Below are positions 15,392 to 30,223 of a DNA stretch of 64,000 bases, one piece after another. The notes beneath the pieces are model-generated. The model was not told the origin of the DNA. It saw only the letters and a program-made list of their open reading frames with translations, and searched no databases. The stretch is from Candidatus Woesebacteria bacterium. GTDB taxonomy: Bacteria; Patescibacteriota; Microgenomatia; UBA8517. Numbering within the stretch: the first letter of the stretch is position 1; each line of letters opens with the position of its first letter. A program made the position numbers and the translations under genes. The DNA is taken from the NCBI GenBank assembly GCA_013426185.1, contig CP058602.1, forward strand, positions 138,231 through 202,230. Direction: 5' to 3'.

Positions 15392-15730
15392 TCATTTTAG
15401 GCTGGCAACAATTTTTTTGAAAACTTCAGGTGATTTGACAGCAATGTTGCTTAATATTTTTCTGTCGATTTCTATTTTATTGTCTTTCAAGAGTTTTATG
15501 AATCTAGAGTAAGAGAGATTTTCTTTTCGAACTGCAATGTTAAGCCTTATTATCCAGAGGCGCCTTAGGTCTCTCTTTTTGTTTTTTCTGCCAATATAAG
15601 CATACTGGCCTGCATGAAGAACTGCTTCTTTGGCAACCTTTAGCCTTTGACTTCTTGCCTGCTTGAAGCCTTTGGCTTTCTTTAGAATCTTGCGATGTTT
15701 TCTTGATGCTACTGATTTTGCTCTTGCCAT
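15392..15730 (-). CDS. rplT: 50S ribosomal protein L20
   Basis: N-terminus MARAKSVASRKHRKILKKAKGF is the L20 signature. Confidence 0.9.
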   Translation of the reverse strand: MARAKSVASRKHRKILKKAKGFKQARSQRLKVAKEAVLHAGQYAYIGRKNKKRDLRRLWIIRLNIAVRKENLSYSRFIKLLKDNKIEIDRKILSNIAVKSPEVFKKIVASLK

Positions 15731-15736
15731 TTTAGT

Positions 15737-15931
15737 TTATTTGCCAAGTGCTCTTTTTATTTTCTTGGCCCAAGTTTTGTGAGTTTTTACTACACGACTT
15801 AAAGATCTCTTTTTATTGGCTGATTTTTTGGTATTTAAATGGCGTTTAAAGCCCTGCTTTCGCAAAAGCTTGCCCTTTTTAGTAAGCCTGAATCTCTTGG
15901 TAATGATTTTTTTAGTTTTGATTTTCGGCAT
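15737..15931 (-). CDS. rpmI: 50S ribosomal protein L35
   Basis: N-terminus MPKIKTKKIITKRFRLTKKGK is the L35 signature. Confidence 0.85.
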   Translation of the reverse strand: MPKIKTKKIITKRFRLTKKGKLLRKQGFKRHLNTKKSANKKRSLSRVVKTHKTWAKKIKRALGK

Positions 15932-16475
15932 TTTTGTTTTCTCCTTCTTTTTTAACCTTGTTTAAGGGTGAAATCACGCTAGCTAGGTACCTTCCCAAAA
16001 ACTTCGGTTCCATATCTACGTTGATTTCCATTCCTACTTCAGCTATTACTCTTTTGATTATATCGTAGCCAAAGTTTTTGCTACCCATTTGTCTGCCTTT
16101 AAACTTAACCACGATTCTCACCTTGTTGCCGTCTTTTAAAAACTCTCTAATTCGTCCCAATCTGTTTTGAAAATCAGCTTCAGCTATAAAAGGTGAAAAT
16201 CTTATTTCTTTTGTTTCTCCTCCTTTTGCACCTTTTTTTTCTTTTTTAAGGCGTTTCTCTTGCTCGTATTTAAATTTACCGAGCTCGATCATTCTAACAA
16301 CTGGTGGATTGGCTTTAGGTGCAATCTCAACCAAGTCAAGTCCTAGCTCCTGGCACTTTTCAAGAGCCTCTTTTAAAGTCATTATGCCAACTAGTTTTTT
16401 GTTGGCATCAAGAACTCGCACTTTATCTGCTCTTATCTGTTGGTTTATTTTCCAGTTGTCTAAGATGTCTTTCAA
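15912..16475 (-). CDS. infC: Translation initiation factor IF-3
   Basis: INQQIRADKVRVLD ... LDLVEIAPKANPPVVRM IF3 N- and C-domain signatures. It sits in the infC-rpmI-rplT order. Confidence 0.85.
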   Translation of the reverse strand: MKDILDNWKINQQIRADKVRVLDANKKLVGIMTLKEALEKCQELGLDLVEIAPKANPPVVRMIELGKFKYEQEKRLKKEKKGAKGGETKEIRFSPFIAEADFQNRLGRIREFLKDGNKVRIVVKFKGRQMGSKNFGYDIIKRVIAEVGMEINVDMEPKFLGRYLASVISPLNKVKKEGENKNAENQN

Positions 16476-16535
16476 TTTAGCCTTAAAAATTACTGATTCA
16501 TTTTACTAGAAAAAATTTTTTAAATCAATACTAAT

Positions 16536-17345
16536 TTCCGTACACCCCCGGGGTGTACTGAGGCGACACCTCGGTATTATTTTTATTCAATAGCTAGAGC
16601 CTTGATTTTTGCCAGTTTTCTTTGGTAATCAACTTGATTGAAAGTAAATTCCACCATTTTTTCTATTGATGGAAAGAATTTGAGAAGAAATTCTTTGTCG
16701 ATAATCTTTAGATCTCTTGTTCCTAGATAATCAGGAAAAGAGGTCCCTGGATAGGTTTTTAGGTCTTCTGGATTTTTAATCAAAAATGAGGTTAAGGGAT
16801 TAAGATGTATGTAACGAGCTACATGTACAAATTGTTCGTCATTTTCTATTCTCACCGCCTTAAAACCGGATTGGAATAGAGCTCCTGGTCTTTTGTTCCT
16901 TGTATTGTAGAATTTAGCAATACTGTTTTGGAAGTTGCCGATAAAAGATGAGATTCCTTTTTCTTTTATTTCTTTAGCTAAAAAATGGAAATGGTTAGGC
17001 ATTAAAGAAAAGGTAAAAATACTGATTCTTTTAGTATTATTTTCGATTGTATTATCCCAGAATAAGTTTTTATCCTCCGAGCTAAGCCTTGCGTAATGGG
17101 AGTATCTTATATCTAGGTTATCAAAAGCGTAGAATTTTATAGTTTCGATGGCTCTGTCGAGTAGTCTTTTTGATACAAAGATTTTTTCAGAGCCGACTGT
17201 TTTGTTGAATATATGATAAATTTCACCTTTGACGATTGGTTCTTTTCTAAGGGCCATTATATAAAATTTACATTAACAATTACCGAGGTGTCAAGCTAGT
17301 ACACCCCCGGGGTGTGATTGGGGTGTGATTGGGGTGTGATTGCAA
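16536..17345 (-). mobile_element. REP/RAYT-like unit: one HuH transposase gene bracketed by about 37-bp imperfect terminal inverted repeats
   Basis: Left end is GTACACCCCCGGGGTGTACTGAGGCGACACCTCGGTA (16536-16572). Right end is its near reverse complement, TACCGAGGTGTCAAGCTAGTACACCCCCGGGGTGTGA (17281-17317). The unit lies in the thrS-infC intergenic space. Confidence 0.6.
16583..17257 (-). CDS. HuH Y1 transposase, IS200-like / REP-associated tyrosine transposase (RAYT)-like
   Basis: HuH motif in MPNHFHFLAKE and a catalytic Tyr motif ARYIHLNPL (the YIxxNP motif of RAYTs). The gene is flanked by inverted palindromic repeats. Confidence 0.65.
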   Translation of the reverse strand: MALRKEPIVKGEIYHIFNKTVGSEKIFVSKRLLDRAIETIKFYAFDNLDIRYSHYARLSSEDKNLFWDNTIENNTKRISIFTFSLMPNHFHFLAKEIKEKGISSFIGNFQNSIAKFYNTRNKRPGALFQSGFKAVRIENDEQFVHVARYIHLNPLTSFLIKNPEDLKTYPGTSFPDYLGTRDLKIIDKEFLLKFFPSIEKMVEFTFNQVDYQRKLAKIKALAIE

Positions 17346-17349
17346 TTCT

Positions 17350-19089
17350 TTAGAGGTTTTTAGAAATTTTTTCTTGTAAATCTTTAATAAAAGAGTCGAG
17401 GGTAAGTGCACCATAGTCCTTTCCATCTCTACCTCGGACGCTGATTTTTTTCTCTTTTTCTTCCCTATCACCAACTATGGCCATAAAATAGACTTTTTCT
17501 ATCTGAGCATCTCTTATTTTTGCTCCAAGTGTCTCGTTTCTCAAGTCAAGTTCTACTCTTATATTTTCCTCCCTTAATTTTGCAGTAATTTCTTCTGCAT
17601 ATTTTAGATTTCTCTCAGTTATGGGCAGAACTTTTACTTGAATTGGTGTGAGCCATAATGGAAAATTTCCAGCGTAGTTTTCGATTAAAATTGCCATAAA
17701 CCTTTCCATTGAACCAAGAGGGGCTCTATGGATTAAGACAGGCCTTTCAATTTTGCCTTCTTCGTTTACATACTCAAGTTGAAAACGCTCAGGAAGCATA
17801 AAGTCAACCTGAATTGTTCCACATTGCCACTCTCTTCCAAGAGAATCTTTAACAACGACATCAAGCTTTGGGCCATAAAAAGCCGCATCTCCCTCACTTT
17901 TGATAAATTCTAGCCCCTTTTTCTTGACTGCTTTGACGATTTCCTCTTCGGCTTTTTGCCAAATCTTGTCGTTTCCTAGATATTTTTCTTTTTTAGATCT
18001 AAGACCTAACCTTAAGTAATAATTTTTGAGCCCAAAGGTCTCGAGAAGATATGACATGTAGTCAAAAACACCTATAAACTCGTCAATAACTTGACTTTCA
18101 CGGCAGAATATGTGAGCGTCGTCTTGTGTAATATGTCTTACTCTTAGCATTCCTGAAAGCTCGCCCGGCTTTTCGTAGCGGTAGACGGTCGCAATTTCAG
18201 CTATTCTTAAAGGCAGCTCACGATAGCTTCTTTTTTCTGATTTATAAATCATCATATGGAAAGGACAATTCATTGGCTTGACCAAGTATTCGTCTTTATC
18301 AATTTTCATAGGTGAATACATCTTGTCGCGGTATAAATCCCAGTGACCTGATGTTTTCCATAGCTGTTTTTTGCCTATATGAGGAGTATAGACATGTTGA
18401 TAACCTCTTTTTGTCTGTTCTTTTATAATAAAGTTCTCAATTTCTCGTCTTATAATTGCTCCTTTTGGTTTAAGTAAAAGAAGTCCTTGTCCTATTTCTT
18501 CGCTTAGCAAAAATAAATCAAGGTCTTTGCCTATTTTTCTATGGTCTCTTTTTTTCGCTTCCTCAAGGTTTTTGAGAAAAATGTCAAGTTCCTCTTGAGT
18601 TTCAAAAGCAGTTCCGTAAATGCGGGTTAGCATTTTATTTTTTTCATCCCCGTGCCAATAAGCACCCGCAATTGAAAGCAACTTAAAGGCACCAACTTTT
18701 CCAGTTGAGGTGACATGAGGCCCTGCGCAAAGATCTACAAATTCATCCCCTGTTCTATATATTGTTGGTTTTTCTCCTCTTTTTTCTATCTCATCTAACC
18801 ATTCAAGTTTGAAAGGATTATCGGAGAAAATTTTTCTTCCTTCCTCAATAGTAATTTCTTCTCTTGTAAGAGGGAGATTGGCTTTGATAATTTTTTTCAT
18901 CTCAGCTTCAATTTTGGGAAAATCTTTTTCGCTAATCTCTTCCCCATTTGGGTCAAAATCAAAATAGAAACCGTCATCGGTTGCAGGCCCCATTGCCATT
19001 TTTACCTTTGGGAAGAACCTGAGAACAGCTTGGGTTAGAATGTGCTCTGTTGTGTGTCTTATAGCCTTTAGCTTTTCGTTTTTGTCCAT
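17350..19089 (-). CDS. thrS: Threonyl-tRNA synthetase (lacks an N-terminal TGS extension)
   Basis: AIRHTTEHILTQAV editing-domain signature and class II core motifs; 579 aa. Confidence 0.85.
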   Translation of the reverse strand: MDKNEKLKAIRHTTEHILTQAVLRFFPKVKMAMGPATDDGFYFDFDPNGEEISEKDFPKIEAEMKKIIKANLPLTREEITIEEGRKIFSDNPFKLEWLDEIEKRGEKPTIYRTGDEFVDLCAGPHVTSTGKVGAFKLLSIAGAYWHGDEKNKMLTRIYGTAFETQEELDIFLKNLEEAKKRDHRKIGKDLDLFLLSEEIGQGLLLLKPKGAIIRREIENFIIKEQTKRGYQHVYTPHIGKKQLWKTSGHWDLYRDKMYSPMKIDKDEYLVKPMNCPFHMMIYKSEKRSYRELPLRIAEIATVYRYEKPGELSGMLRVRHITQDDAHIFCRESQVIDEFIGVFDYMSYLLETFGLKNYYLRLGLRSKKEKYLGNDKIWQKAEEEIVKAVKKKGLEFIKSEGDAAFYGPKLDVVVKDSLGREWQCGTIQVDFMLPERFQLEYVNEEGKIERPVLIHRAPLGSMERFMAILIENYAGNFPLWLTPIQVKVLPITERNLKYAEEITAKLREENIRVELDLRNETLGAKIRDAQIEKVYFMAIVGDREEKEKKISVRGRDGKDYGALTLDSFIKDLQEKISKNL

Positions 19090-19146
19090 AAGATAAGCTT
19101 ATATTAAAACTTTTGCGAGGAAAAATCTATAAGGAGCGAGTTTTAG

Positions 19147-19220
19147 TGGACCCGAGGGGGATCGAACCCCTGACCTCTTGACTGCCAGCCAAGCGCTCTA
19201 GCCAGCTGAGCTACGGGCCC
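19147..19220 (-). tRNA. tRNA-Ala (GGC)
   Basis: Cloverleaf GGGCCCG/CGGGTCC with the G3:U70 Ala identity pair. Anticodon loop CTGGCAG; T-loop TTCGATC. Confidence 0.85.
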
Positions 19221-19278
19221 TTAGAATTTTATTTTAGCATACTGCATTATTTTAACAAAGTGTTTCTTCTTTAGGCTA

Positions 19279-19335
19279 AATCCCGATCTGGCAAGCTAAA
19301 CCACTTCCGAAGTGGGCTGAGTTGCCATATCGGGA
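19279..19335. repeat. Direct repeat E1: a remnant of the copZ 3' end (…NPDLAS*) plus downstream imperfect palindrome. E2 is its partner.
   Basis: ATCCCGATCTGGCAAGCTAAACCACTTCCGAAGTGGGCTGAGTTGCCATATCGGGAT. Inner palindrome CCACTTCCGAAGTGG; outer arms ATCCCGAT/ATCGGGAT. Confidence 0.7.
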
Positions 19336-19347
19336 TATTTAAGTCCA

Positions 19348-19569
19348 CTACCTTTTCAAGTTAAAAATTATAGAAAGAATAATTGTTAAGATGATGCTTA
19401 TGATTATTGAAGTTGTAATGGGTGCGTAGAAGATAAAATTTTCTTTTTTAATGAATATGTCACCAGGTAATTTCCCAAAATATGGTATTTTGCTAGAAAA
19501 TAGAATAAAAATACCGAAGGCGACTACTATTAGACCTAAAAGGATAATTAATTTACCCAAATCTTGCAT
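19348..19569 (-). CDS. DUF2905 family small membrane protein
   Basis: GKLPGDI motif flanked by two TM helices. It is co-oriented immediately downstream of copA. Confidence 0.5.
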   Translation of the reverse strand: MQDLGKLIILLGLIVVAFGIFILFSSKIPYFGKLPGDIFIKKENFIFYAPITTSIIISIILTIILSIIFNLKR

Positions 19570-19593
19570 ACCTAGATATTATAAATTTTAGCT

Positions 19594-21861
19594 TCAATGG
19601 GAATCAAATTGTATTCGCTCTCTTTTTAATCGCAGTGAATTGCCTACGACAGAAATTGAACTTGCAGCCATCGCAAAGGCGGCCAAAGCAGGGTTAAGAA
19701 GAAGGTGAAAAGAAGGATAAAGGATTCCCATTGCAACAGGAATTAGAGAAACATTATAACCAAATGCCCAAAAGAGATTTTGTTTTATAACAGAAAGAGT
19801 TTTTCGACTTAGATTGTAGGCCGTCAAGATAGATTTAATATCTTTGTTGAGTAAGGTGATTCCTGCTGATTCAATTGCAACATCAGTTCCTGATCCAATC
19901 GCAATTCCGATATCTGCTGTTGCTAAAGAAGGAGCATCATTTACTCCATCTCCGACAAAGGCCACCACTTGTGTTTTTTCTTTTTTCAGCTCTTTTACTT
20001 TGTTTGCTTTTTCTTCCGGCAAAACATCAGCTAGTACATTCTCTATGCCCGATAACTTTGCTATTGCCTTTGCGGTTCTTTCGTTGTCGCCTGTTATCAT
20101 CCAAATCTCAATACCCTCTCTCTTCAAGTTTTGCACAGTTTCTTTTACCCCACCTTTAAGAGTGTCGGAAATTGTAATTATACCCAGAAGATTTTTGCTT
20201 TGGGATAGAAACACCACGGTTTTTCCTTCGTATTCCAACTTTTTGATACTTTCTTCCCATTTATCGAGATTGACCCTATTTATTCCCATTAAAGCTCTAT
20301 TACCCAAAAAATATATCTTTCCTTCTATTTTTCCTTCAATTCCCTTCCCGGCGTGAGAGGTAAAGTTTTTTACTGCGGCAAGTTTTAGTCTATTACTTTT
20401 TGCCTTTTTGAGTATTGCATCAGCAAGCGAATGTTCGGATCCTTTTTCAAGAGAGGCTGCGATTTTAAGTACTTCCTCCTTGCTTATTTTTTGATTCTTG
20501 TTTTCAATGATATCAACTACTTTGGGTCTGCCTTGAGTTAGGGTGCCGGTTTTATCAAAAATAAAAATCTTTGCTTTGCTTAAAATCTCAAGGCTCTGAG
20601 CGTCTTTAATTAAAATGCCTGATTCTGCTCCCTTGCCGACACCTACCATAATAGCGGTTGGTGTGGCAAGACCCATCGCGCAAGGGCAAGCGATGATAAG
20701 AACGGCTATCATGTTACTCAAGGCTAAGTTGAAATTGCCAAAGTCGTACCACACAACAAAGGTTAAAACCGCAAGGACAAGGACAATGGGCACAAAATAT
20801 GAAGACACGATATCTGCAATTCTTTGGATGGGCGCTCTTGTTGCCTGAGCCTCTGAAACAAGTTTTATGATGTTTGAAAGCATTGTTTCTTTACCAACTT
20901 TCTCTGCTTTAAAGATAAAGGTCCCTGTTTTATTGATGGTTCCGCCAATTACTTTGTCTTTTACTTTTTTGTCAACAGGTATTGACTCTCCTGTTATCAT
21001 TGATTCATCAACACTGCTTGCTCCTTCAACAATCTCACCGTCTACAGGGATTTTTTCACCTGGCCTGACGCGGATAAAATCGCCAACTTTTACGTTGTCA
21101 ATTGAAATGTCAAACTCCTTGAAATTACCTCTTTTGATATCTGATATGGTTAGCTTGTCCCCCGTTCTTACAGTTTGCAACACTCTTGCAGTTTTTGCCT
21201 TGAGTCCTAGTAATTTTTTAATAGCATCGGAAGTATGAGCTTTAGCTTTTGCCTCAAGAAGTCGGCCCAACAGGATAAGAGCAATGATAACAGTTGCTGT
21301 GTCAAAGTATAAATGTCCCCCTTTAAAAGTTGAAATTAAAGAATAACCCCAGGCACTAGATGTGCCAATTGCAATTAAGGTATCCATGCTTGCAGTTCTA
21401 TTTTTGAGTCCTGACAATGTAGCCTGATAAAAACTCTTTCCTGCCCAGAACTGTACAGGGGTAGAAAGTAGTAAAAGAGTAAAAGGATTACTCAAAAATT
21501 GAGGAACAAAATTGAACCATTCTGGAAAACTCCCAAGTACTACAAAAATTGATACAACTATGGAGAAAATAGTCTTTATTTTGAGATTTTCAAGCTCCCT
21601 TTTCTTTTCTTCTTCTTTAATCTTGTTGATATCTTTTTCTTCGTCTGTTTTGATTATGGCTTTGTACCCTGCTTCTTCTACAGCGTTTGCTAAATCTTGA
21701 TCTTTAACATTCAGACTGCATTCAACCACTGCCTCCTCGCTTCCGTAGTTCACAGAAGCGGTTTTGACACCTTCTATTTTTTGCAATTTTCTTTCAATCA
21801 GCTTGGCGCAGGAGGCACAGTGCATTCCAATAATTGGGAAAGAAGTCCTTTTTATTTGCAT
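19594..21861 (-). CDS. copA: Copper-translocating P1B-type ATPase
   Basis: N-terminal HMA domain ([14 protein letters not shown]), a CPC metal-binding TM motif ([11 protein letters not shown]), DKTGTLT phosphorylation site and GDGVNDAP. Confidence 0.85.
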
Positions 21862-21960
21862 CTTATTTTCAAATTTTTTCTTTCTCGCTAAAGAAAAACC
21901 ATATTACAAAGATAATAGCAATAGTGCCCAAGAGCGTAACCAATATTTTGTCTGAAGTAA

Positions 21961-22272
21961 TCATCTGGTTGATTTTCTAAAGACTGCTTTTATCTCTTTT
22001 ATTAATTTGTTTTCATCTATCTTTCCCTTTTTGGCAGGATCAATCACACAGCTTTTAATATGATTTTCAAGTATTATCTCGTCTACTTTTTTAAGTGCAG
22101 ATTGTATGGCTTGAGATTGATTAATAACGTCAATGCAATAAGCATCTTCTTCAACCATTTTTATAACTTTTTCAATGTGACCGCGAGTTATTTTTAGACG
22201 GTGAATTATTTTGCTTTTGGTTGGTTCTTTGCTGTAAAGGCGTGTGTTCATACTAAAATTACCTGTTGACAT
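21961..22272 (-). CDS. csoR: CsoR/RcnR-family metal-sensing transcriptional repressor (DUF156)
   Basis: RGHIEKVIKMVEEDAYCIDVINQSQAIQSALKKV...HIKSCV matches the CsoR helix-bundle signature, with conserved Cys/His. It is upstream of copA in the same orientation. Confidence 0.65.
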   Translation of the reverse strand: MSTGNFSMNTRLYSKEPTKSKIIHRLKITRGHIEKVIKMVEEDAYCIDVINQSQAIQSALKKVDEIILENHIKSCVIDPAKKGKIDENKLIKEIKAVFRKSTR

Positions 22273-22295
22273 CCCCTGTATGGGGATGTATAAAT
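22266..22295 (+). promoter_or_regulatory. Divergent promoter with a CsoR-type operator: TTGACA, 17-nt spacer, TATAAA, with the palindrome ACATCCCC-TGTAT-GGGGATGT inside the spacer
   Basis: Read directly. The C4-N5-G4 inverted repeat is the CsoR operator architecture. A minus-strand TTGACA-17-TTTAAT promoter for csoR-copA lies a few bp away. Confidence 0.5.
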
Positions 22296-22351
22296 TAAAC
22301 TACTTAGATTGTTTATTGTCAAGTGCTTTTATCTTTTAATATACTCTAATT

Positions 22352-23347
22352 ATGAACACAGTCTTTCTCGCCTTCTTTACTGGTTTAACTACAGGTGGCG
22401 TTTCTTGTTTTGCTGTCCAGGGTGGCCTTTTAGCAAGTTCAATTGCCAACCAAAAAGAAGGCGAAAGAAGTAAAGCAGTTTTTCTTTTCCTTTTCTCACG
22501 ACTTTTTGCTTACTTTGTTTTAGGAGCTCTTCTTGGATTTTTGGGTTCATCAATTGCCATTTCTCCTAAAGTTCAGGGATTAATGCAAATTTTTGCCGGC
22601 GTTATAATGCTTTTGACCGCTTTTCGTCTTTTTGATTTACATCCTGTTTTCAGGCGTTTTGTTATTACCCCTCCGAAGAGTGTTTTTAAGGTTCTGAGGA
22701 TAAAAAGCCGTGAAGAAGGACTTTTTTCAGCTTTGTTTTTGGGGTTATTAACTGTTTTAATACCTTGCGGTGTCACTCAGGCAATGATGCTTCTTTCGGT
22801 TGCTTCTGGTTCCTGGGTCTATGGTGGTTTGATTCTTTTCTCTTTTATTTTGGGGACCACTCCCTTATTTTTGTTTTTGGGTGGTGTCTCAGGAAAACTT
22901 TTTGAAGTCAAAAGTTTCAGATTCGTTGCTGCTTTTGTTATTTTAATTTTGGGAGTTTTGTCAATTAATACAGGGCAGATGCTTCGCGGTTCGATCCATA
23001 CGCTTCAAAATTATTGGCTAGCTGCAACGGGTCGCCTTGAGCAAAATGGTAGAGGTAAGATTGCGGAGTTTAATAAGAACGGTATTCAAGAAGTTGAAGT
23101 AAAGGTAACAACCTCGGGTTATTATCCCAGCGCTACTTCCCTTAAAGTGGGTGTGCCGGTTCGTCTTAAATTAAACTCTCAAAATGCACAGGGTTGTATC
23201 AGAGCTTTTACCATTCCTGAATATGGTATCTCTCAAGTTTTGCCTGCTAGTGGCGAGACAGTTATTGAATTTACTCCTACTAAAAAGGGTAAGCTCGCTT
23301 TTACCTGCAGTATGGGTATGTATGGTGGTTATTTTGATGTTTTCTAA
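22352..23347 (+). CDS. Polytopic membrane protein (DsbD/CcdA- or TauE-like, with Cys in two TM helices) fused to a C-terminal cupredoxin-like domain; putative copper-handling protein
   Basis: About 8 TM helices with GGVSCFAVQGG and LIPCGVTQAMM. The C-terminal soluble region (VPVRLKLNSQNAQGCIRAFTIPEYGI...FTCSMGMYGGYFDV) resembles a Cys/Met-rich copper-binding beta-sandwich. It is divergent from csoR and upstream of copZ. Confidence 0.4.
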   Translation: MNTVFLAFFTGLTTGGVSCFAVQGGLLASSIANQKEGERSKAVFLFLFSRLFAYFVLGALLGFLGSSIAISPKVQGLMQIFAGVIMLLTAFRLFDLHPVFRRFVITPPKSVFKVLRIKSREEGLFSALFLGLLTVLIPCGVTQAMMLLSVASGSWVYGGLILFSFILGTTPLFLFLGGVSGKLFEVKSFRFVAAFVILILGVLSINTGQMLRGSIHTLQNYWLAATGRLEQNGRGKIAEFNKNGIQEVEVKVTTSGYYPSATSLKVGVPVRLKLNSQNAQGCIRAFTIPEYGISQVLPASGETVIEFTPTKKGKLAFTCSMGMYGGYFDVF

Positions 23348-23350
23348 TTT

Positions 23351-23575
23351 ATGGCAAAAAAGATTTACAAAGTAGAAGGAATGAATTGCGATGCCTGCGC
23401 CAAGATGATTGAGCTTGATTTGGAGGATGAAGGTGTTGTGGCAATGTGCGATTATGCTAAATCTTCTTTAGAAATTGAGATTGAAGACAAGAAAACTGAG
23501 GATAAGGTAAAAGAAGTTCTTAGAAAGGGTGGATACTTGTTGGTAGAGGAGACCAATCCCGATGTGGCAAGCTAA
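23351..23575 (+). CDS. copZ: Heavy-metal-associated (HMA) domain copper chaperone
   Basis: MNCDACAKMIE MxCxxC motif; 74 aa. Confidence 0.75.
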   Translation: MAKKIYKVEGMNCDACAKMIELDLEDEGVVAMCDYAKSSLEIEIEDKKTEDKVKEVLRKGGYLLVEETNPDVAS

Positions 23576-23611
23576 GCTACTTCCGAAGTTGACTGTGTAG
23601 CCAATTGGGAT
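23556..23611. repeat. Direct repeat E2: the genuine copZ 3' end plus the same downstream element, about 80% identical to E1
   Basis: ATCCCGATGTGGCAAGCTAAGCTACTTCCGAAGTTGACTGTGTAGCCAATTGGGAT, in the same orientation as E1. Confidence 0.7.
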
Positions 23612-23638
23612 TTTGATTTTGGAAATTTGAAGAGATTG

Positions 23639-23681
23639 TGGACGGTAAGGGACTCGAACCCCTGACCTTTCGCACGTCATC
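23639..23681 (-). other. Orphan tRNA 3' fragment (T-arm plus acceptor 3' strand ...GGTCAGGGGTTCGAGTCCCTTACCGTCCA)
   Basis: It has a T-stem/T-loop and the acceptor 3' strand ACCGTCC, but no D or anticodon arm. The acceptor is complementary to the 5' fragment at 24029-24051. Confidence 0.5.
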
Positions 23682-23698
23682 CCGATTTTAATTTGGTG

Positions 23699-23772
23699 TG
23701 GATCCAGTAGGACTCGAACCTACGACCTCTTACACGTCAAGTAAGCGCTCTAGCCAGCTGAGCTATGGATCC
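23699..23772 (-). tRNA. tRNA-Val (GAC)
   Basis: Cloverleaf GGATCCA/TGGATCC. Anticodon loop TTGACGT; T-loop TTCGAGT. Confidence 0.85.
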
Positions 23773-24012
23773 ATCATTTATTAACTTTTTGAGGTGTTTA
23801 GGATTTTTATATTTTTTCAGACGCTTTTCAAGCACTATTGCCTCTTTTTTAGTTTCTACACCTATGTTACATATCATTTTCCAAGGAACACCTCTTCTTG
23901 TCCATCTTTGTTTGCCTTTGTTATGGTTCAACAGTCTTTTAACCAAATCCTTAGTATAACCTATATATAATTTGTTTAATTTGATGCTTTCTAAAATATA
24001 GACAAAATACAT
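23737..24012 (-). CDS. GIY-YIG nuclease family small protein. The real C-terminus is probably shorter; the ORF track reads through into tRNA-Val.
   Basis: N-terminus MYFVYILESIKLNKLYIGYTKDLVKRLLNHN contains the GIY..YIG motifs and a catalytic R/N pattern. Confidence 0.55.
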   Translation of the reverse strand: MYFVYILESIKLNKLYIGYTKDLVKRLLNHNKGKQRWTRRGVPWKMICNIGVETKKEAIVLEKRLKKYKNPKHLKKLINDGSIAQLARALT

Positions 24013-24028
24013 TTTATATTAATCGGGA

Positions 24029-24051
24029 CTAACCAACTGAGCTAACCGTCC
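24029..24051 (-). other. Orphan tRNA 5' fragment (acceptor 5' strand plus D-arm start GGACGGTTAGCTCAGTTGGTTAG)
   Basis: Canonical 5' tRNA sequence that stops inside the D-loop. Its acceptor GGACGGT pairs with the ACCGTCC of the 3' fragment at 23639-23681. Confidence 0.5.
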
Positions 24052-24114
24052 CCATTTGATAGCAAAGTGCTTTTGTTTAGGTATTTTAGATTAAATTTGT
24101 ATCAACTTCAATAT

Positions 24115-24714
24115 TTAACCTGCAGATCTTGTTAGGTAATGATCGGCTGAAAGGAGAAAGCTTGAGCCGTGTTTTTTGTATCTGTTCCAGTATTTCATTC
24201 TTGTTCTTTTGCTTGTTGCCTCAAGCCAGATTGAAGCTTTTTCTATTTCAAGTCTTGCAGTTCTTATAATTTTTAGAACCTGTTCAAAGAAAAACAGATG
24301 ATATGTGCCGGGATTTTGTGGCGCTTGTTCCGGTATAGCCTTTATTTCTTCTCTTATATTTTGGGTGGATTTTGATAGAAGTTTTACTTCTTTTATGATT
24401 GCATCAAGCTCGGCTCTTAGCTGTCCTATCTTTTTTTCCACTTCTTTCTTTTCTTCTGTGAACACAGAAAGTTCGTGCCATCGGCTTGTTACTTCTACTC
24501 TTTTGGTTTCTGTTTTTATTCCTGATTTGGATATTTCTATTGATTCCCCGGGTCTAAATTCTTGTTTTTGTGGGTATTCACTTTTGACACCAACAATTTC
24601 TTGAAGGATGCTTAAAGGATCAATATTACTTGCCAAAGAAGACATTAACCCCACCTGTTCATTTAGGTTTTCTATTTGCTTTGCTCTCTGGCTTTTTTTT
24701 GTGGAATTTGCCAT
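24115..24714 (-). CDS. Hypothetical coiled-coil protein
   Basis: 199-aa ORF downstream of trigger factor with a central heptad-rich segment. No recognisable motif. Confidence 0.3.
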   Translation of the reverse strand: MANSTKKSQRAKQIENLNEQVGLMSSLASNIDPLSILQEIVGVKSEYPQKQEFRPGESIEISKSGIKTETKRVEVTSRWHELSVFTEEKKEVEKKIGQLRAELDAIIKEVKLLSKSTQNIREEIKAIPEQAPQNPGTYHLFFFEQVLKIIRTARLEIEKASIWLEATSKRTRMKYWNRYKKHGSSFLLSADHYLTRSAG

Positions 24715-24738
24715 TGGTTTTGGCAGGCTTTTTTAATT

Positions 24739-25632
24739 TTATAACAAAGAAGTCAAAAATTCCAATGCCTTCCTTCTTAAGAGTATGTTTTTGATGGCTT
24801 CTCTTTGCTCTTGACTATTTTCTTGGCCATCTTGACTATTTAACGAAGCTGACATCTTCAAGACTTCATCTAATTCTTTTTTATCTACCTCTAGCTTTTC
24901 ATCAAGAGCTATTTTGTTGAGTATAAGTTCTAAAGCTAGAGATTGTTTTGTTTGGTTTTCGTATTCTTCTCTTAAGCTTTCTGCTGTTTTTCCAGTTGAT
25001 TCAAGATATTTTTCAAGACTTAAGCCCAATTTCTCTATTCTTTCCAAAAGTTGCGAAAGTCTATGATTTACTTCCTCTTCTACCAAAAGAGTTGGGACAT
25101 CTACTTTAATAATTTTCATTAGAGCCTCGATGACTTTTTGCTCTTTTTCCTCTTGTGTTGGTTTTTGGCCGTCTCCCCCCTTTTTATCAGGTGTCCAAAT
25201 TTCGGTGGTCTTTAGTTCTTTTCTAATTTCTTCTTTATAGTTGCCTAACTTGACTTCAGGCATTTCACAGGTAGTTACTCTTACCTGCCAGTTTTCTCCC
25301 TCTTTGGCTGACAGGAGCTCAAATCTTGGATAGATAACAGGTTTAATATTCTCTTCTTGTAGTGCTTCACGTAGAGCTGGCAAGACAATATGAGTTAGAA
25401 TTTCTTCGATTATTTTTTCTGGTTTGACATTTTCTTTTACCTTTGCAATTGGGGCTTTGCCTTTCCTAAAACCTGGTACTTCCAGATTTTGACCCAATTC
25501 TTTTAAGATATGCTCTTCGTTTTGAGCAATAATCTGGGCGGGTATGGTAAAGGTTATTTGGACCGTTTTGTCTTCTGTTCTCGCGACGGTTCTTGTAATT
25601 TTTTCTTCTTTATTTTCTTTCTTTTTAGTCAT
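24739..25632 (-). CDS. tig: Trigger factor (domain-reduced, no PPIase domain)
   Basis: N-domain signature GFRKGKAPIAKV (GFRxGxxP) followed by a long helical chaperone C-domain. At 297 aa it is too short to include an FKBP domain. Confidence 0.6.
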   Translation of the reverse strand: MTKKKENKEEKITRTVARTEDKTVQITFTIPAQIIAQNEEHILKELGQNLEVPGFRKGKAPIAKVKENVKPEKIIEEILTHIVLPALREALQEENIKPVIYPRFELLSAKEGENWQVRVTTCEMPEVKLGNYKEEIRKELKTTEIWTPDKKGGDGQKPTQEEKEQKVIEALMKIIKVDVPTLLVEEEVNHRLSQLLERIEKLGLSLEKYLESTGKTAESLREEYENQTKQSLALELILNKIALDEKLEVDKKELDEVLKMSASLNSQDGQENSQEQREAIKNILLRRKALEFLTSLL

Positions 25633-25669
25633 AGTGGTTATTATATCCTAAATCATTAAAAATGGATAG

Positions 25670-25920
25670 GGGAATAAGCTTTACTTGAAATTTAGAACGC
25701 AAAATTGAAAGTTAAAAGTTAAAACTTTCTAATTAGATTATAGATTATAGAATTTTGATTTATACTTACTACATTCTACATTCTACTTTCTACTTTTATT
25801 TCCTGAATAATATAAAATACTAAATACTAACTTTTGACCAGCTTTGACTAACTCCGCTGCAGTCGGAGACTAACTTCGACTAATATCTGATAGCTGATGT
25901 CTGATATCCGATATCCGAGG
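25670..25920. repeat. Mosaic intergenic repeat copy R3 (R2 orientation; modules E-D-C'-B)
   Basis: Contains TACTTACTACATTCTACATTCTACTTTCTAC, a degenerate core, and ATCTGATAGCTGATGTCTGATATCCGATATCCGA. It lies upstream of tig. Confidence 0.7.
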
Positions 25921-26079
25921 CCCTATCCCTTATGCTGAGTTTTAAAGGTTGAAGGGTTAAATTTGATGCCAAATGAAGATTTGGGACTAAAAGTTTTAGC
26001 CTTGAAAAAATCTGGAGTCCTATATTTTGGCCCTGCTTGATTTGGTCCTTCCTTTTTCTTGATAAAGCTTTTTGTCATA

Positions 26080-26418
26080 TCAATCTTTGGCAAGACGAGA
26101 CAAAAACCAAGAAACAAAAGAAAGAGCTACCGAGGCAATGATGGCAGTTGTAAAGTTGGCAATCTCAAAGCCTGGGACAATAAGGCTTGCAACATAAAGT
26201 AGAGCCACATTGATAAGGAGAGCAAAAATACCAAAAGTGGCAATGGATATGGGTAAAGTGATTATTTGCAATATTGGTCTTATGAAGGTATTAACAATAC
26301 CAATTACAACAGCAGCAACAGTTGCTGCCCAGATATTGTCTAGCTTAAATCCTGGAACAAGATATTCAACAACATAAAGGGCAAAGACATTGATGGCAAG
26401 CCGCATTATTAGTCTCAT
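26080..26418 (-). CDS. DUF360 / phage-holin-4-like (YvlD family) membrane protein
   Basis: Four TM helices. LYVVEYLVPGF ... LINVALLYVASLIVPGF is the characteristic internal repeat of the family. Confidence 0.5.
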   Translation of the reverse strand: MRLIMRLAINVFALYVVEYLVPGFKLDNIWAATVAAVVIGIVNTFIRPILQIITLPISIATFGIFALLINVALLYVASLIVPGFEIANFTTAIIASVALSFVSWFLSRLAKD

Positions 26419-26438
26419 ACTTTAATATAAACTTATTT

Positions 26439-27445
26439 TTAGTCTTTTGTCAAATTTTTAACAAAGAATTCTAAAGTATTCTCTGCCGCATCATCCCATT
26501 TTGGCCTTAAATTATGATTAGCACCGGCGTAAGTCTGATATTCCACTTCTTTACCTAATTTTTTAAGCTTCTGAAACATATCCTTTGACCACTTTTCAGG
26601 AACAACGTCATCACTGGCCCCCTGAATTATGAGAAGAGGTGAATTTATTCTATTGAAGTAGTTGGTTATTGAATATTTATCAACGTCATACAGTTCTTCA
26701 AATTTTGCTAGCTCTTTTCTTATAAATTTGCCTTTATCTTCTGCCTCGTCAGTATAATACAAAATTGAGTATGGAAATGGTTTTGAAACAGGAGCCCAAA
26801 GGACAGTAGGTATATTTTTCTCTGATACTTCAAGAGTATAAAGTGCTATCTGCCCTCCGTTTGAATGTCCCCAGATAAAAATATTTTTCCTTCCCATTTT
26901 TCGATATCCTCGACTGATTTGATTAAAGAAAGTATGGTAGTATAAGTTTGAAAACGGGATTCAAAAATATTTTCTGCTTCCCTGTCGGAATCTGCATACC
27001 CTAAAAAATCAGGAGCGATTGTTATAAAGCCTTTTTCGGCCAAAAAATAGCTCATATTTTTAGAGCCGGTTCCTGTTTTATAAATTTTTGGGTCAACATA
27101 ACCTCTAATCATAATGACCAGAGGAAAAGTTGATTTTCCTTTTGGTATGTTTATTAAACCTGATGTCTTTTTTATCGTCTTTTGGTCAAGGTTTGGGTTA
27201 AATTGAAATTCAAAAATGTAGGAGTCAAAAGTTTCTTTTTCTTCAATTTTTTCTTTTATGATTATTTTTCCTTCAGGTATATTGGTTTTGGCCAAGTTTT
27301 CAATAGAATATCTTTCAAGAGGTCTTTCTATTTCTCCACTTTTATTGATTAAATCAACCTTTTTATCGCTTTTATTTTTGTTTAGAAAATACAAGACGGA
27401 TATAAAAAGAAAGGCTATTGAGGCTATAAATAAAACATTTCTCAT
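26439..27445 (-). pseudogene. Alpha/beta-hydrolase (dienelactone hydrolase / S9-like) split by a +1 frameshift in an A5/T5 homopolymer near 26875-26890
   Basis: Two overlapping minus-strand ORFs (26846-27445 and 26439-26897) join into one hydrolase with a signal peptide, nucleophile elbow GHSNGG and a C-terminal Asp/His region. The frames differ by 1 nt within gaaaaatattttta. Confidence 0.5.
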
Positions 27446-28839
27446 TTGTTTAAATATTGAGCGATAGTAAGAAAAGAAAATATTCCATAGAAAACAAAAG
27501 CGGAAAGAAGAAATAATTTTCGGAGTATACTTGGTCTTAGCGGTTTTTCAAGCAGTGAATTGTTTAGCCAAAGTATAAGTATCGTATATACAAACATTGT
27601 AAAAGCGTTTAAAACAGCTCCTAAAACAAGAAGAGTCAAAGGCTCTGTAATTCCAAACATAAATATAATTATCCCAAGAGTAATCTGTGACCAAAGGAAG
27701 AAGTAATAGAACTTAGGCAAGTTTTCAATCCTGAATCTGTTTTGGTTTAAAAGTATTAAATTCTCACTCATTATTCTTGATGTGGCGTCAATTACTGAAA
27801 ACTGTGTAAAGAAGAGTGTTAAACTGCAAATTCCAAGAAAGATACTACCTATTAGTGGAGCTGTTTTTAAGCCTATGTTTTTAGCTTCGGTTAAGATAAA
27901 GCCTATGCCACTTTCTGTCTCTTGGCCATAAACAGTTAGGTAGGAAAGAAATGAAAGAATTATCATTGTGAAAGCGCCGGTTACTAGGAAGACTAAAGAG
28001 TGCTCTATATTTATAGCTCTCCACCAATTTTTAAACCTTTCCAAATTTTTTTGATTTAAGGTAAAAGAGTAACCCTCAAGGTTTATTCTTTCTGCCTCGC
28101 CCGTCAAGATACTTGTTATTCTTCCTGAATATTTGCCCATTCCATAGCCCTTTTCTTTGACATAAAAGCTTTGAGCCAAATTAAGGTTGCCACCCGCGCC
28201 GGCATAAGCTACAGCTCCCAAAAAAGCTGCTATTGAGATGCCTTGAGGCAAAAACCAGAAATTATCACCTTTGCCCACAAGTCCCTCAAAAAGTGGTGGC
28301 AGATTTTCTTTTTTTGCAATTAGTGTTGTTATCAAAAGAATTAAGGGAATGCTAATACTGATCACTATCTTGAGCAATTTTTCTTGAGTTTTGTATATCA
28401 CAGGTCCTAAAGTAAAAATTAGGCCGATGATAATAAGGAAGATTATCGGAATAGCTTTTGTGTAATTTATTCCCAATAAATTTGAAAATATTTTTGCTGA
28501 TGAAGCGATAATTCCCGGCCACATCCAAGGGATTAGGGTTGAAACTATGAACCAAAAAGGGATTATTTTACCCATCTTTCTTGTAAGACCAACAAAAACA
28601 CTTTCCCCTCTTAAAAGCGTGTATCTTTCTATTTCCATATTGATGAAGAATTGGAAGGTAATGCCCAAGACTGCTGCCCAGATAATGCCCATTCCGTATC
28701 TTGATGCAAGGTATGGCCAGAGAATGATTTCTCCGCTTCCAAGTCCTAGTCCAAGTAAAATAAAACTTGGCCCCAGAAGTTTTTTTAAAGGAAGAGGTTT
28801 GGGTAAATTCTTTTTCTTTAGAGTATTTTTTGCTTCCAC
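27442..28839 (-). CDS. Polytopic transporter, possibly a distant Nramp/APC-superfamily member
   Basis: 10 to 12 TM helices. An N-terminal GPSFILLGLGLGSGEII segment loosely resembles the Nramp TM1 motif GPGFLxxxAYxDPGN. Confidence 0.3.
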   Translation of the reverse strand: MEAKNTLKKKNLPKPLPLKKLLGPSFILLGLGLGSGEIILWPYLASRYGMGIIWAAVLGITFQFFINMEIERYTLLRGESVFVGLTRKMGKIIPFWFIVSTLIPWMWPGIIASSAKIFSNLLGINYTKAIPIIFLIIIGLIFTLGPVIYKTQEKLLKIVISISIPLILLITTLIAKKENLPPLFEGLVGKGDNFWFLPQGISIAAFLGAVAYAGAGGNLNLAQSFYVKEKGYGMGKYSGRITSILTGEAERINLEGYSFTLNQKNLERFKNWWRAINIEHSLVFLVTGAFTMIILSFLSYLTVYGQETESGIGFILTEAKNIGLKTAPLIGSIFLGICSLTLFFTQFSVIDATSRIMSENLILLNQNRFRIENLPKFYYFFLWSQITLGIIIFMFGITEPLTLLVLGAVLNAFTMFVYTILILWLNNSLLEKPLRPSILRKLFLLSAFVFYGIFSFLTIAQYLNK

Positions 28840-28879
28840 TTTATAAAGTTTAATTTATAATAGAATTTAAGGCAAGCTT

Positions 28880-29440
28880 ATGAAAAAAAGAGTTTTTGTG
28901 GGGATCTCGGTTTCCAAATCTCTTTCTTCTTTTATTTACGACTTTATAAAAAGAAATAAGGGTTCTTTGCCATCTGACGCAAGGATAATTAAACCAAGAA
29001 ACTTGCATCTGACGCTAGTTCCACCTTGGTATGAAGAAAATCTTGACAGTTTTCTATTGAATTTTGAGAAGAAACTAAAAAGTATGCAGATTCAACCTTT
29101 TAAAATTCAATTTACAAAAATTTTTCCTGGACCTGTCAAAACAAATCCTCGTCTAATTTGGATAGAAGGAAAGCCAAAGCCTGAACTATTAAACTTGAAG
29201 TCTTTTGTTGAAGGCATTATTGAAAAAAGAGATGTTGAGAAAAGAGAATTTATTCCCCATATAACAATTGCTCGTTTTAAAAGCAAAAATAGCTGTCAGT
29301 TTAAAGAAGAAAAGATAAAATTTGAAGAGACTATAAAGTCATTTTGTATTTTTGAATCTAGACTTTCTCCCAAGGGCGCTGATTATAAAGTGCTAAAAAA
29401 GTTTATTACATCTAGTAGTTATAAAAAGGCCAAGTGCTAA
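28880..29440 (+). CDS. thpR: 2H phosphoesterase / RNA 2',3'-cyclic phosphodiesterase (LigT/ThpR)
   Basis: Two H-x-T-x motifs (HLTLVP and HITIARF) at the canonical spacing. Confidence 0.7.
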   Translation: MKKRVFVGISVSKSLSSFIYDFIKRNKGSLPSDARIIKPRNLHLTLVPPWYEENLDSFLLNFEKKLKSMQIQPFKIQFTKIFPGPVKTNPRLIWIEGKPKPELLNLKSFVEGIIEKRDVEKREFIPHITIARFKSKNSCQFKEEKIKFEETIKSFCIFESRLSPKGADYKVLKKFITSSSYKKAKC

Positions 29441-29500
29441 AACGTATGCTTTTGGAATAGTTTAGATAAAGCAAAGCAACCTAAAAGGATGTGTTTAACC

Positions 29501-30007
29501 TTACTCTTGAAAGTTAATTAGTTCTACTTTGTCGCCTACTTTTATATTGTTTTTATCAGTAAAGCTGGAATTCACTTCAAGAACGTAATCGATGGGCTGG
29601 TTTGATTTGTAAAGAGTTAGCTTGTTGTCGGGTGTTCCTGTTTTTGGGGCTTTGGCGTTTTTATCAATTTTGACTATTTTTGAGTCTCTTATCCAAATAA
29701 TGTCAAGGTCAAATTTCATATCTTTCATCCAAAAAGTAGCCGTTGATCCTTTTGGAAATACAAAAAGCATACCTTTATTCTGGTCAAGAGAATCACGGTT
29801 TGAAAGCCCTTTGGTTCTTTTTTCCGGAGTATCGGCTATCTCTAATTCAATTTCTGTATTATTGATTTTAATCTTTGGCTTTTGTTCTTGTGTTTGGTTT
29901 TTGTTTGTTGGAGTGGTTGTGGCAGATTGGTATTTTTTTGCTAGAAGACCAAGAGAAACAATTATTAATGCGGTGATAGCTATTGGAAAAAGAATATGTT
30001 TTGTCAT
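29501..30007 (-). CDS. DUF192 (COG1430) family secreted protein
   Basis: Signal/TM anchor followed by GLSNRDSL...GMLFVF...FWMKDMKFDLDIIWI, typical of DUF192. Confidence 0.6.
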   Translation of the reverse strand: MTKHILFPIAITALIIVSLGLLAKKYQSATTTPTNKNQTQEQKPKIKINNTEIELEIADTPEKRTKGLSNRDSLDQNKGMLFVFPKGSTATFWMKDMKFDLDIIWIRDSKIVKIDKNAKAPKTGTPDNKLTLYKSNQPIDYVLEVNSSFTDKNNIKVGDKVELINFQE

Positions 30008-30141
30008 AGGCCCGACTTTATTAGGAAATAGGCTAATAGTAATGTTATAAAAAATACTATTATGGGGATTAGAGCAAGATATATATCTTCTCTAATTTTT
30101 TCATTTTTTATGATCTGAATAACTTGTTTTTGCATTTTTAG

Positions 30142-30223
30142 TGCCCCGAAGAGGATTTGAACCTCTACGCCTTGCGGCACACGCTCCTAAAGCGTGCCTG
30201 TCTACCAATTCCAGCATCGGGGC
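30142..30223 (-). tRNA. tRNA-Leu (TAG), type II with long variable arm
   Basis: Acceptor GCCCCGA/TCGGGGC; anticodon loop TTTAGGA; variable arm TGCCGCAAGGCGT; T-loop TTCAAAT. Confidence 0.85.

Follow-up and report, generated by a model that had tools for sequence, protein, structure and literature searches.

Within a 64-kb stretch of DNA (the window) from an 818,817-bp contig of the Candidatus Woesebacteria metagenome-assembled genome (MAG) CH104c, a gene encoding a 224-aa protein lies between thrS and infC and is annotated there as "hypothetical" (QLG69394.1). The genes follow each other on the minus strand in the order thrS, the 224-aa open reading frame (ORF), infC, rpmI, rplT, pheS and pheT. 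The gene encodes a nuclease of the Y1 HuH type and is bracketed by palindrome-bearing inverted repeats; gene and repeats together are called the unit here, with the left end upstream of the gene (thrS side) and the right end downstream of it (infC side). As an earlier reading of this sequence (the preliminary description) had proposed, the unit fills a spacer that is normally short: the gap between thrS and infC is 874 nt in the window versus ~25-30 nt in two related loci (L039 and L040) and ~100 nt in a third (L042). The thrS stop codon is 7 nt away from the first of the 11-nt repeats described below. The GC content of the gene is 32.9%, compared with 36.0% for the window, and the ends of the unit reach 55% and 43%. 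A tblastn search of the 64-kb window with the 224-aa protein found no second copy of the gene. The coordinates of all features are collected in Table 1.

Table 1 Features of the Y1 unit, its neighbours and the orphan units in the window
Feature	Position	Strand	Remarks
Y1 HuH nuclease gene, 224 aa	16583..17257	-	ORF list
thrS, upstream neighbour	17350..19089	-	Pfam tRNA_SAD, tRNA-synt_2b, HGTP_anticodon
infC, downstream neighbour	15912..16475	-	Pfam IF3_N, IF3_C
Left-end (thrS-side) palindrome GTACACCCCCGGGGTGTGA, = GTACACCCCCGGGGTGT(GA)	17299..17317		Outermost feature of the unit
Left-end linker CTAGCTTG and arm repeat "A2" ACACCTCGGTA (17281-17291)	17281..17298	-	A2 copies the 5' arm of the palindrome
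Promoter-like site in left end	17265..17294	-	TTGACA (17294-17289), 18-nt spacer, TAAATT (17270-17265)
Three tandem copies of the 11-nt unit GGGGTGTGATT	17309..17342		Outer thrS-side palindrome arm + 4 nt
Right-end (infC-side) palindrome GTACACCCCCGGGGTGTAC	16540..16558		9-bp stem, one central base
Right-end linker and inverted arm repeat (ACACCTCGGTA at 16566-16576)	16559..16576	+	Family right-end consensus
Promoter-like site for infC	16500..16528	-	TTGATT-17-TAAAAT, just outside the right end of the unit
Orphan complete unit, second sequence type	19277..19339		Covariance-model matches on both strands, 34.5 and 29.2 bits
Degenerate orphan left-end-like unit, second type	23553..23602	-	Covariance model 22 bits, E 0.0018

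The palindromes that the preliminary description had seen at both ends of the unit were recovered (Table 1). A covariance model matched the left end at 17277-17326 on the minus strand (49.7 bits, E 1e-10) and the right end at 16531-16580 on the plus strand (23.6 bits), and the right-end palindrome gave a DNA folding energy of -10.1 to -10.4 kcal/mol (z about -3). The imperfect inverted repeats of ~37 bp said to bracket the gene are also present, as arms of 35 nt with 83% complementarity (16542-16576 and 17281-17315) that reach inward past the palindromes; their local-alignment score was 44, while the maximum in shuffled flanks was 23. The part inward of each palindrome consists of a linker and a repeat of a palindrome arm (the arm repeat), the inner edge of the right-end arm repeat being 6 nt from the Y1 stop codon. 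At the outer edge of the left end, the 11-nt unit GGGGTGTGATT is present in three tandem copies in the window as well as in two loci from other samples (L083 and L084), and in one copy in L081/L082, whose Y1 protein is 97% identical; since its copy number differs between strains, the 11-nt unit behaves as a variable-number tandem repeat. Further copies of the palindrome, as repetitive extragenic palindromic (REP) sequences would have, were not found beyond the two ends: the 17-mer GTACACCCCCGGGGTGT has no third site in 64 kb with up to 3 mismatches allowed (0 of 100 shuffles contained a match). The Rfam scan of 15500-19600 returned only tRNA-Ala above threshold, and the hairpins match no known RNA element or thrS/infC leader. 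The possibility that the hairpins are intrinsic terminators was considered and rejected, because neither of them is followed by a T-run on the operon strand.

To the protein itself, the motifs attributed earlier to the ORF at 16583-17257 (minus strand) can indeed be read there as PNHFHFLA and RYIHLNP. The HuH motif corresponds to H89 and H91 in PNHFHFL and the catalytic tyrosine to Y149 in RYIHLNP, an FQ pair is present at 128-129, and the C-terminal tail of ~70 residues (155-224) is predicted to be helical. Residues H89, H91, Y149, N153 and P154 are invariant in 121 homologues. The Pfam family Y1_Tnp (PF01797) was matched with 32 bits (cutoff 23), as the preliminary description had anticipated, and is the sole Pfam family match in 30 of 30 family members. 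The corresponding check against a profile of REP-associated tyrosine transposases (RAYTs) did not succeed: REP_Tyr_transpos (NF047646) was the only NCBIfam match and scored 52.5 bits, under the equivalog cutoff of 80. Given that sequence searches of the PDB were at best marginal, with no match by single-sequence phmmer and only ISDra2 TnpA and 4er8 at E 0.03-0.13 by profile search, a structure comparison was needed. With an AlphaFold model built on the 121 homologues (pLDDT 91.9), Foldseek placed 4er8, the E. coli TnpA-REP with its REP hairpin, first in the PDB (E 8.5e-9, TM 0.70 on target); ISDra2 and IS608 TnpA came next at about 2e-5, and the top 28 structure matches were all Y1 transposases or TnpA-REP. 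When four tails were searched on their own, no relevant match appeared (E <= 10). No C-terminal helix-turn-helix-like domain (Bac_DnaA_C, HTH_23 or HTH_28) was detected by Pfam in the 30 members; the tail being helical, a very remote relationship may exist.

Class 2 of the Y1 TnpA proteins (RAYT-like) is characterized by the motif Y---NP, and class 1, to which IS200 belongs, by Y---Q (Quentin et al. 2018, PMC6006769). Judged by motif and predicted fold, the window protein is a class-2 (RAYT-like) Y1 HuH nuclease, and it is placed in class 2 instead of class 1 because its motif is Y149-I-H-L-N153-P154. The published signature of subclass 2.1 comprises NH[YF]H, FQ, Y[IV]HLNP and an SS motif in the proximal tail, with a median length of 238 aa (PMC6006769). 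The window protein, with 224 aa, contains NHFH, FQ and YIHLNP, and at the place of the SS motif the family consensus is YPWSSF and the window protein has YPGTSF.

Homologues of this protein are numerous. We collected 827 of them, nearly all 223-226 aa in length, and found more than 553 loci in GTDB species-representative genomes; an exhaustive profile search yielded 1,080 clusters at 50% identity (E <= 1e-30). All hosts with informative names are Microgenomates, namely Daviesbacteria, Gottesman-, Levy-, Shapiro-, Curtiss-, Woese- and Beckwithbacteria, and the family members are annotated just as "transposase" or "hypothetical". No family member was found among the viral contigs of IMG/VR. We found no publication describing these Y1 genes of the candidate phyla radiation (CPR)/Patescibacteria, one preprint merely mentioning the KEGG term. 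The genes form a large and apparently undescribed Y1 family of the Microgenomates, related to the "domesticated transposases" of better-known bacteria. The remark that a RAYT-like gene in a CPR genome would be noteworthy has to be rephrased, since with more than 553 loci such genes are very common in Microgenomates.

To define the ends of the unit across the family, the flanks of 80 related loci were compared, and 59 left ends were aligned (alignment A3). Nearly all of the 80 loci share one architecture at both ends. Read from the outside inward, the left end consists of 0-3 extra copies of the outer arm, the palindrome (a 5-9-bp stem with a 1-5-nt loop), a linker of ~9 nt with the consensus TAGCTTGA, and the arm repeat with the consensus CACCTnnGG, which repeats the 5' arm of the palindrome; further inward follow ~17 nt, a -10-like hexamer, ~7 nt and the ATG. 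At the right end an inverted copy starts a median of 6.5 nt past the stop codon, the palindrome again being outermost. For most of the 74 family loci in which inverted repeats were scored, the score exceeded that of shuffled flanks. GC-rich palindromes are a structural feature of the whole family, and extra outer-arm copies occurred in 7 of 64 family loci versus 0.65% of control windows. On each strand, only 1 of 64 family ends had the GT[AG]G tag, the defining feature of REPs, and 0 of 64 left ends had the motif GGGGWSAS on either strand.

The palindromes differ in sequence between loci, their pairing is kept, and the two ends of a locus match each other. In the stems of the 59 aligned loci, 80% of the cells were paired, compared with 32-53% in slid controls, and 83 cells showed a double change versus 41.6 after shuffling, a value reached in 0 of 500 shuffles. 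The arm repeat co-varies with the palindrome as well: 78.7% of its cells are pairable with the 3' arm, with 35 double-change cells versus 12.6 expected from shuffling (again 0 of 500 shuffles). The palindrome of the left end recurred at the right end of the same gene in 47 of 60 loci, versus 7.7% of cross-locus comparisons.

A promoter-like site is embedded in the left end (Table 1) and is the best match of its kind in 15800-19500 (10/12). Only 7 nt separate its -10 box TAAATT from the ATG at 17257, which implies a leaderless mRNA. Across the family, 52 of 75 loci have TTGAC between -38 and -33 relative to the ATG, and 40 of the 75 have it at -35/-36; 47 of those 52 loci also have TANNNT at -16 to -4, and a Shine-Dalgarno-like motif occurs in 2 of 75. 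Given the fixed TTGAC and -10-like hexamer and the near absence of Shine-Dalgarno motifs, these sequences make it very likely that a promoter located in the left end drives the family genes and that their mRNAs are leaderless. The right end usually has TAGACA instead of TTGACA and nevertheless keeps the linker and the arm repeat, which argues that the arm repeat is more than a promoter element.

Between the right end of the unit and infC lies a separate promoter-like site for infC, which is conserved at the corresponding place in the distant relative L085 (TTGATT-17-TAGAAT, at about 2150-2185). The operon therefore need not depend on read-through, and transcription of infC-rpmI-rplT may be uncoupled from that of thrS in this lineage. 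About 16 nt, among them the TTGACA/-10 promoter, have been lost from the left end of L085 (1380-1435), where the reading frame of thrS now runs into the palindrome and stops there. Only 25 nt separate thrS from the start of the Y1 gene in that locus, so the latter is probably co-transcribed there.

The same arrangement of thrS, Y1 gene and infC was found in five further loci. Two from other samples encode an identical protein (L083 and L084), two belong to a strain with a 97% identical protein (L081 and L082), and in L085 the Y1 protein is 74% identical and ThrRS and IF3 are each 87% identical. Between the window and L081, synonymous divergence (dS) is 0.20 for the Y1 gene and 0.14-0.21 for infC, pheS and thrS, and the ratio of nonsynonymous to synonymous divergence (omega, dN/dS) is 0.057; versus L085 it is 0.071. 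The genes on either side are syntenic in six other orthologous pairs (62-95% identity), and they are often more diverged than the Y1 protein. The ORF is intact in 79 of 81 cases, and paralogues within a genome are 43-75% identical, each with its own palindrome. The insertion predates the split of lineages whose ThrRS is 87% identical, and the gene is under strong purifying selection. Over longer times Y1 genes do change place: most relatives are located in other genomic contexts, and some pairs with 73-80% identity share no neighbours. The conserved site, the neighbour-like dS, the low omega, the intact ORFs and the divergent paralogues together are the signature of class-2 "domesticated" Y1 genes and not of an insertion sequence (IS).

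These data contradict two proposals of the preliminary description. A fresh insertion does not agree with a locus shared with L081-L085, a dS like that of the neighbours and a dN/dS of 0.057. The GC-rich hairpin had further been taken to suggest a horizontal origin; we reject GC-rich ends as a foreign sign because the GC content of the gene is ordinary and GC-rich palindromes are family-wide, and the locus is again the one shared with L081-L085. Among the relatives, the thrS-infC gap is short in L039, L040 and L042, and the Y1 gene is present in it in L081-L085.

L039 and L040 each have their Y1 gene 1-2 kb away from thrS-infC and on the opposite strand; tRNA-Val(GAC) comes immediately after it, followed at a greater distance by tRNA-Leu(TAG). 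The same tRNAs are present in the same neighbourhood of the window (19146-30223), with orphan units near them. The tRNA region near thrS-infC may be a recurrent home for Y1 cassettes.

Units without a gene (orphans) are rare: ~12 were counted in 590 kb of related loci, distributed over about 10-12 loci. Several ends and orphans are complete palindromic units of ~55 nt, composed of arm repeat', linker, palindrome, linker and arm repeat. One of this kind is located in the window at 19277-19339, between a small ORF and tRNA-Ala/thrS and with no Y1 gene nearby. Its layout is …TCCCGATATGGCAA-CTCAGC-CCACTTCGGAAGTGG-TTTAGCTTG-CCAGATCGGGA… (arm repeat' - linker - CCACTTCGGAAGTGG - linker - arm repeat), its DNA folding energy is -18.8 kcal/mol (z -6.05), and it resembles the left ends of L063/L075-type genes. 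This resemblance suggests that a second paralogue exists elsewhere in the genome or has been lost. The degenerate orphan at 23553-23602 belongs to the same second type, and orphans of the window gene's own palindrome type numbered zero in 64 kb. This degenerate orphan is situated just after tRNA-Val(GAC), with a tRNA 3'-half-like fragment (GGTTCGAGTCC…CCACA) between them. A GIY-YIG-like 91-aa ORF at 23737-24012 (minus strand) overlaps the tRNA (region noted, 23636-23772).

Rearranged forms of the unit, which like the orphans and the variable tandem repeat are evidence of dynamic sites, were seen in related loci. In L028 a full gene is preceded at a distance of 1 kb by a gene-less mini element of ~80 bp with the same ends (2856-2945), in which a left end with the promoter region runs straight into a right-end palindrome, and in L042 the right end is displaced by 1 kb. 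Two further cases look like decayed relics, namely a partial second Y1 gene head-to-head with an intact one (L031:3577-3876) and a duplicated left end with the first codons only (L074:942-1010). The idea that orphan left ends serve as portable promoters was dropped, since an ORF of >=50 aa follows only 2 of 11 orphan units; the sole case of a possible upstream region for another gene is an orphan in L008 (3165-3216) that ends 2 nt before a TrmD-like start codon.

A metagenome scan was carried out with ACACCCCNGGGGTGTAC; about half of its matches were GC-rich noise, and the window species is not among the matches listed. Among these matches, the same palindrome turned up next to further genes of the family, in orphans that carry the family linker, and in arrays. 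Low-GC metagenome contigs (L127, L153, L156 and L191; L088, L093, L112 and L146) contain arrays of TACACCCC.GGGGTGTA-type palindromes ~20 nt apart. In one sediment metagenome, the 31-nt perfect palindrome CCCCACGTACACCCCCGGGGTGTACGTGGGG occurs on three contigs at four places, two of them on one contig. Judging from such arrays, REP-like proliferation seems to occur in some organisms.

Taken together, we assign a probability of roughly 0.7 to the reading that the window holds a resident TIRtron/REPtron-like unit, that is, a single-copy, vertically inherited class-2 Y1 nuclease gene with its cognate DNA sites. TnpA-REP and IS608 TnpA recognize hairpins on single-stranded DNA and carry out tyrosine-mediated cleavage and rejoining. 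By analogy with these two enzymes, the palindromes of the unit would fold into hairpins in single-stranded DNA, such as the lagging-strand template, and the enzyme would bind the hairpin of its own ends together with adjacent bases, probably including the linker and the arm repeat. It could then cut nearby through Tyr149 with a HuH-bound metal, and rejoining would be possible. In the long term such events might spread or delete sites, giving orphans, mini-elements and tandem arm duplications, and might occasionally move or duplicate the gene. Since the arm repeat overlaps the -35 box, binding over both would probably repress the leaderless promoter of the gene itself. The unit in the window would then be an old passenger in the operon.

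Among the systems already described, the closest counterparts are REPtron/RAYT, treated below, and TIRYT or "TIRtron" (Di Nocera et al. 2013, PMC3733652), which Quentin et al. equate with their subclass 2.1 (PMC6006769) and with RAYT Group 1 (Bertels et al. 2017, PMC5581495). The comparison here is with the latter. Like TIRYT proteins, the Microgenomates proteins are class-2 Y1 enzymes of ~224-238 aa with NH[YF]H, FQ and Y[IV]HLNP and an SS motif after the Tyr helix, and they occur in 1-2 divergent copies per genome (published mean identity between copies 49%, here 43-75%). Both also have long terminal inverted repeats (TIRs) at a fixed distance from the ORF, some of them self-complementary and forming small repeat families, and both are devoid of GTAG REPs. 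Unlike those of TIRYT, the Microgenomates ends are tripartite (palindrome, linker and co-varying arm repeat) with a built-in leaderless promoter, and the hosts, CPR Microgenomates, were outside the sampling of those studies. We regard the family as a clade specific to the CPR that has a tripartite site and a leaderless cassette of its own; it does not amount to a categorically new system.

Several points weigh against the resident-unit reading. Binding, cleavage and the position of the cut are all deduced by analogy. The covariation in the aligned sequences fits hairpin pairing and arm/arm-repeat identity equally, and does not tell the structure in vivo. Since the palindrome is present only at the two ends within 64 kb, activity on dispersed sites is conjectural for this organism, and the palindromes and arm repeats could be purely regulatory, as operator, insulator or terminator. 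Membership in subclass 2.1 fits the published motif table and length by motif comparison only; none of the 64 left ends contains GGGGWSAS, which Di Nocera et al. describe as the majority TIR motif, and a C-terminal domain like Bac_DnaA_C, HTH_23 or HTH_28 is not detectable. In a tblastn search of plasmids of cultivated bacteria, the nearest sequences were partial matches with 24-33% identity, so no close cultivated relative was found there.

Three other explanations were weighed. An active, autonomous IS of the IS200/IS605 type, acquired recently and perhaps horizontally and inserted between thrS and infC by single-strand "peel and paste", would agree with the Y1_Tnp match and the common HuH/Tyr core fold, with IS608 and ISDra2 TnpA among the structural matches, and with DNA hairpins at both ends of the element; the different contexts of most distant relatives, the pairs of 73-80% identity without flanking synteny and the truncated relics (L074:942 and the partial copy in L031) point the same way. 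Compared with the TnpA proteins of IS608, ISDra2 and IS200, however, the protein has Y---NP in place of Y---Q and 224 aa in place of ~130-150 aa, and where those elements have subterminal hairpins on the same strand, the unit ends in true inverted repeats whose outermost part is the hairpin. There is no tnpB; the copies within a genome are only 43-75% identical, with none near-identical; the ORF is unbroken in 79 of 81 cases; and viral contigs yielded no member. A position kept at 87% ThrRS identity, a dS equal to that of the neighbours, an omega of 0.06 and an ordinary gene GC stand against recent arrival. For the window locus this explanation is largely refuted, and we give it hardly any weight; the IS200-like TnpA offered as an option in the preliminary description falls with it. 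A canonical REP/RAYT (REPIN-RAYT) system, in which a single-copy RAYT maintains tens to hundreds of dispersed REPs or REPINs, has more in its favour. The best structural match is the TnpA-REP of E. coli (YafM, 4er8), REP_Tyr_transpos is the sole NCBIfam match, and as in the RAYTs of Pseudomonas the gene is a single-copy, vertically inherited Y---NP gene under purifying selection, with cognate inverted palindromes and an own palindrome type for each paralogue. Dispersed orphans, complete long-hairpin units and palindrome arrays in some metagenome contigs also fit. Against it, the protein falls short of the NCBIfam cutoff (52.5 versus 80), and only 1 of 64 ends has the 5' GT[AG]G tag. Orphans are very few, where a RAYT would have tens to hundreds: the 64 kb contain none of the own type, and 590 kb of DNA close to the genes contain ~12. 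The anatomy is unlike that of a REP or REPIN, the palindrome being accompanied by linker, arm repeat and a built-in promoter, and the protein has an extra helical tail of 70 aa. Genomes of ~0.8 Mb with short spacers, moreover, leave little room for hundreds of copies. We consider this system unlikely in its canonical form; of the REP/RAYT-like unit named in the preliminary description, the Y1 HuH superfamily, the fold nearest to TnpA-REP and the hairpin inverted repeats stand, and the canonical RAYT does not.

It is also conceivable that the gene is immobile and its palindromes are only transcription signals, the upstream one an operator or an insulator against read-through from thrS and the downstream one a terminator or mRNA stabilizer, with the true substrate of the enzyme elsewhere. 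The ends at fixed distances from the ORF, the promoter embedded in the left end, the housekeeping-like long-term synteny and selection, and the scarcity of orphans would all be explained in this way. Against this, the right end keeps an inverted linker and arm repeat without the need for a promoter, no T-runs follow the window hairpins, and orphan units and the mini element are found away from genes. Ends that are matched within and diversified between loci are, furthermore, the pattern of enzyme/site co-evolution known from RAYT systems, and Y1 enzymes are hairpin-binding nucleases. We hold purely regulatory palindromes to be improbable, though not quite to the degree of a mobile IS.

A more far-reaching version of the resident-unit reading is put forward only tentatively, since we doubt it more than we believe it. 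The family could represent a distinct, host-retained Y1 nuclease/hairpin system and more than one further RAYT, with every gene carrying a self-contained cassette of palindrome, linker with a -35 box, and arm repeat, in which the 3' arm pairs either with the 5' arm or with the promoter-overlapping arm repeat. This choice would act as a DNA-structure switch that is read or set by the enzyme and couples autoregulated leaderless expression with site processing; the tandem arm duplications that vary between strains, as well as the orphans and miniature units, would arise from cutting at the hairpin. If this were true, an omega of ~0.06 in genomes of <1 Mb would imply a benefit for the host, for example replication-linked hairpin processing, and not parasitism.

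RAYT-type "domesticated" Y1 enzymes are widespread, their cellular role is unclear, and work on them has centred on Proteobacteria with hundreds of REPs. The family described here is a very large and tightly conserved clade in extremely reduced CPR genomes, which keep almost nothing dispensable. Gene, promoter and two cognate sites make up a compact, stereotyped cassette of ~0.8 kb, and the covariation of the sites is provided naturally by hundreds of lineages. The family is therefore a clean system for two questions, namely how a Y1 enzyme reads its hairpin, given that the enzyme-site pairs are readable from sequence, and why such enzymes persist. For annotation, genes of this family should not be named active IS transposases. 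As to the organism, the "insertion" between thrS and infC is an old and stable feature of the lineage and does not count as evidence of recent horizontal transfer, and the regularities at the level of the family are real, extensive and experimentally tractable.

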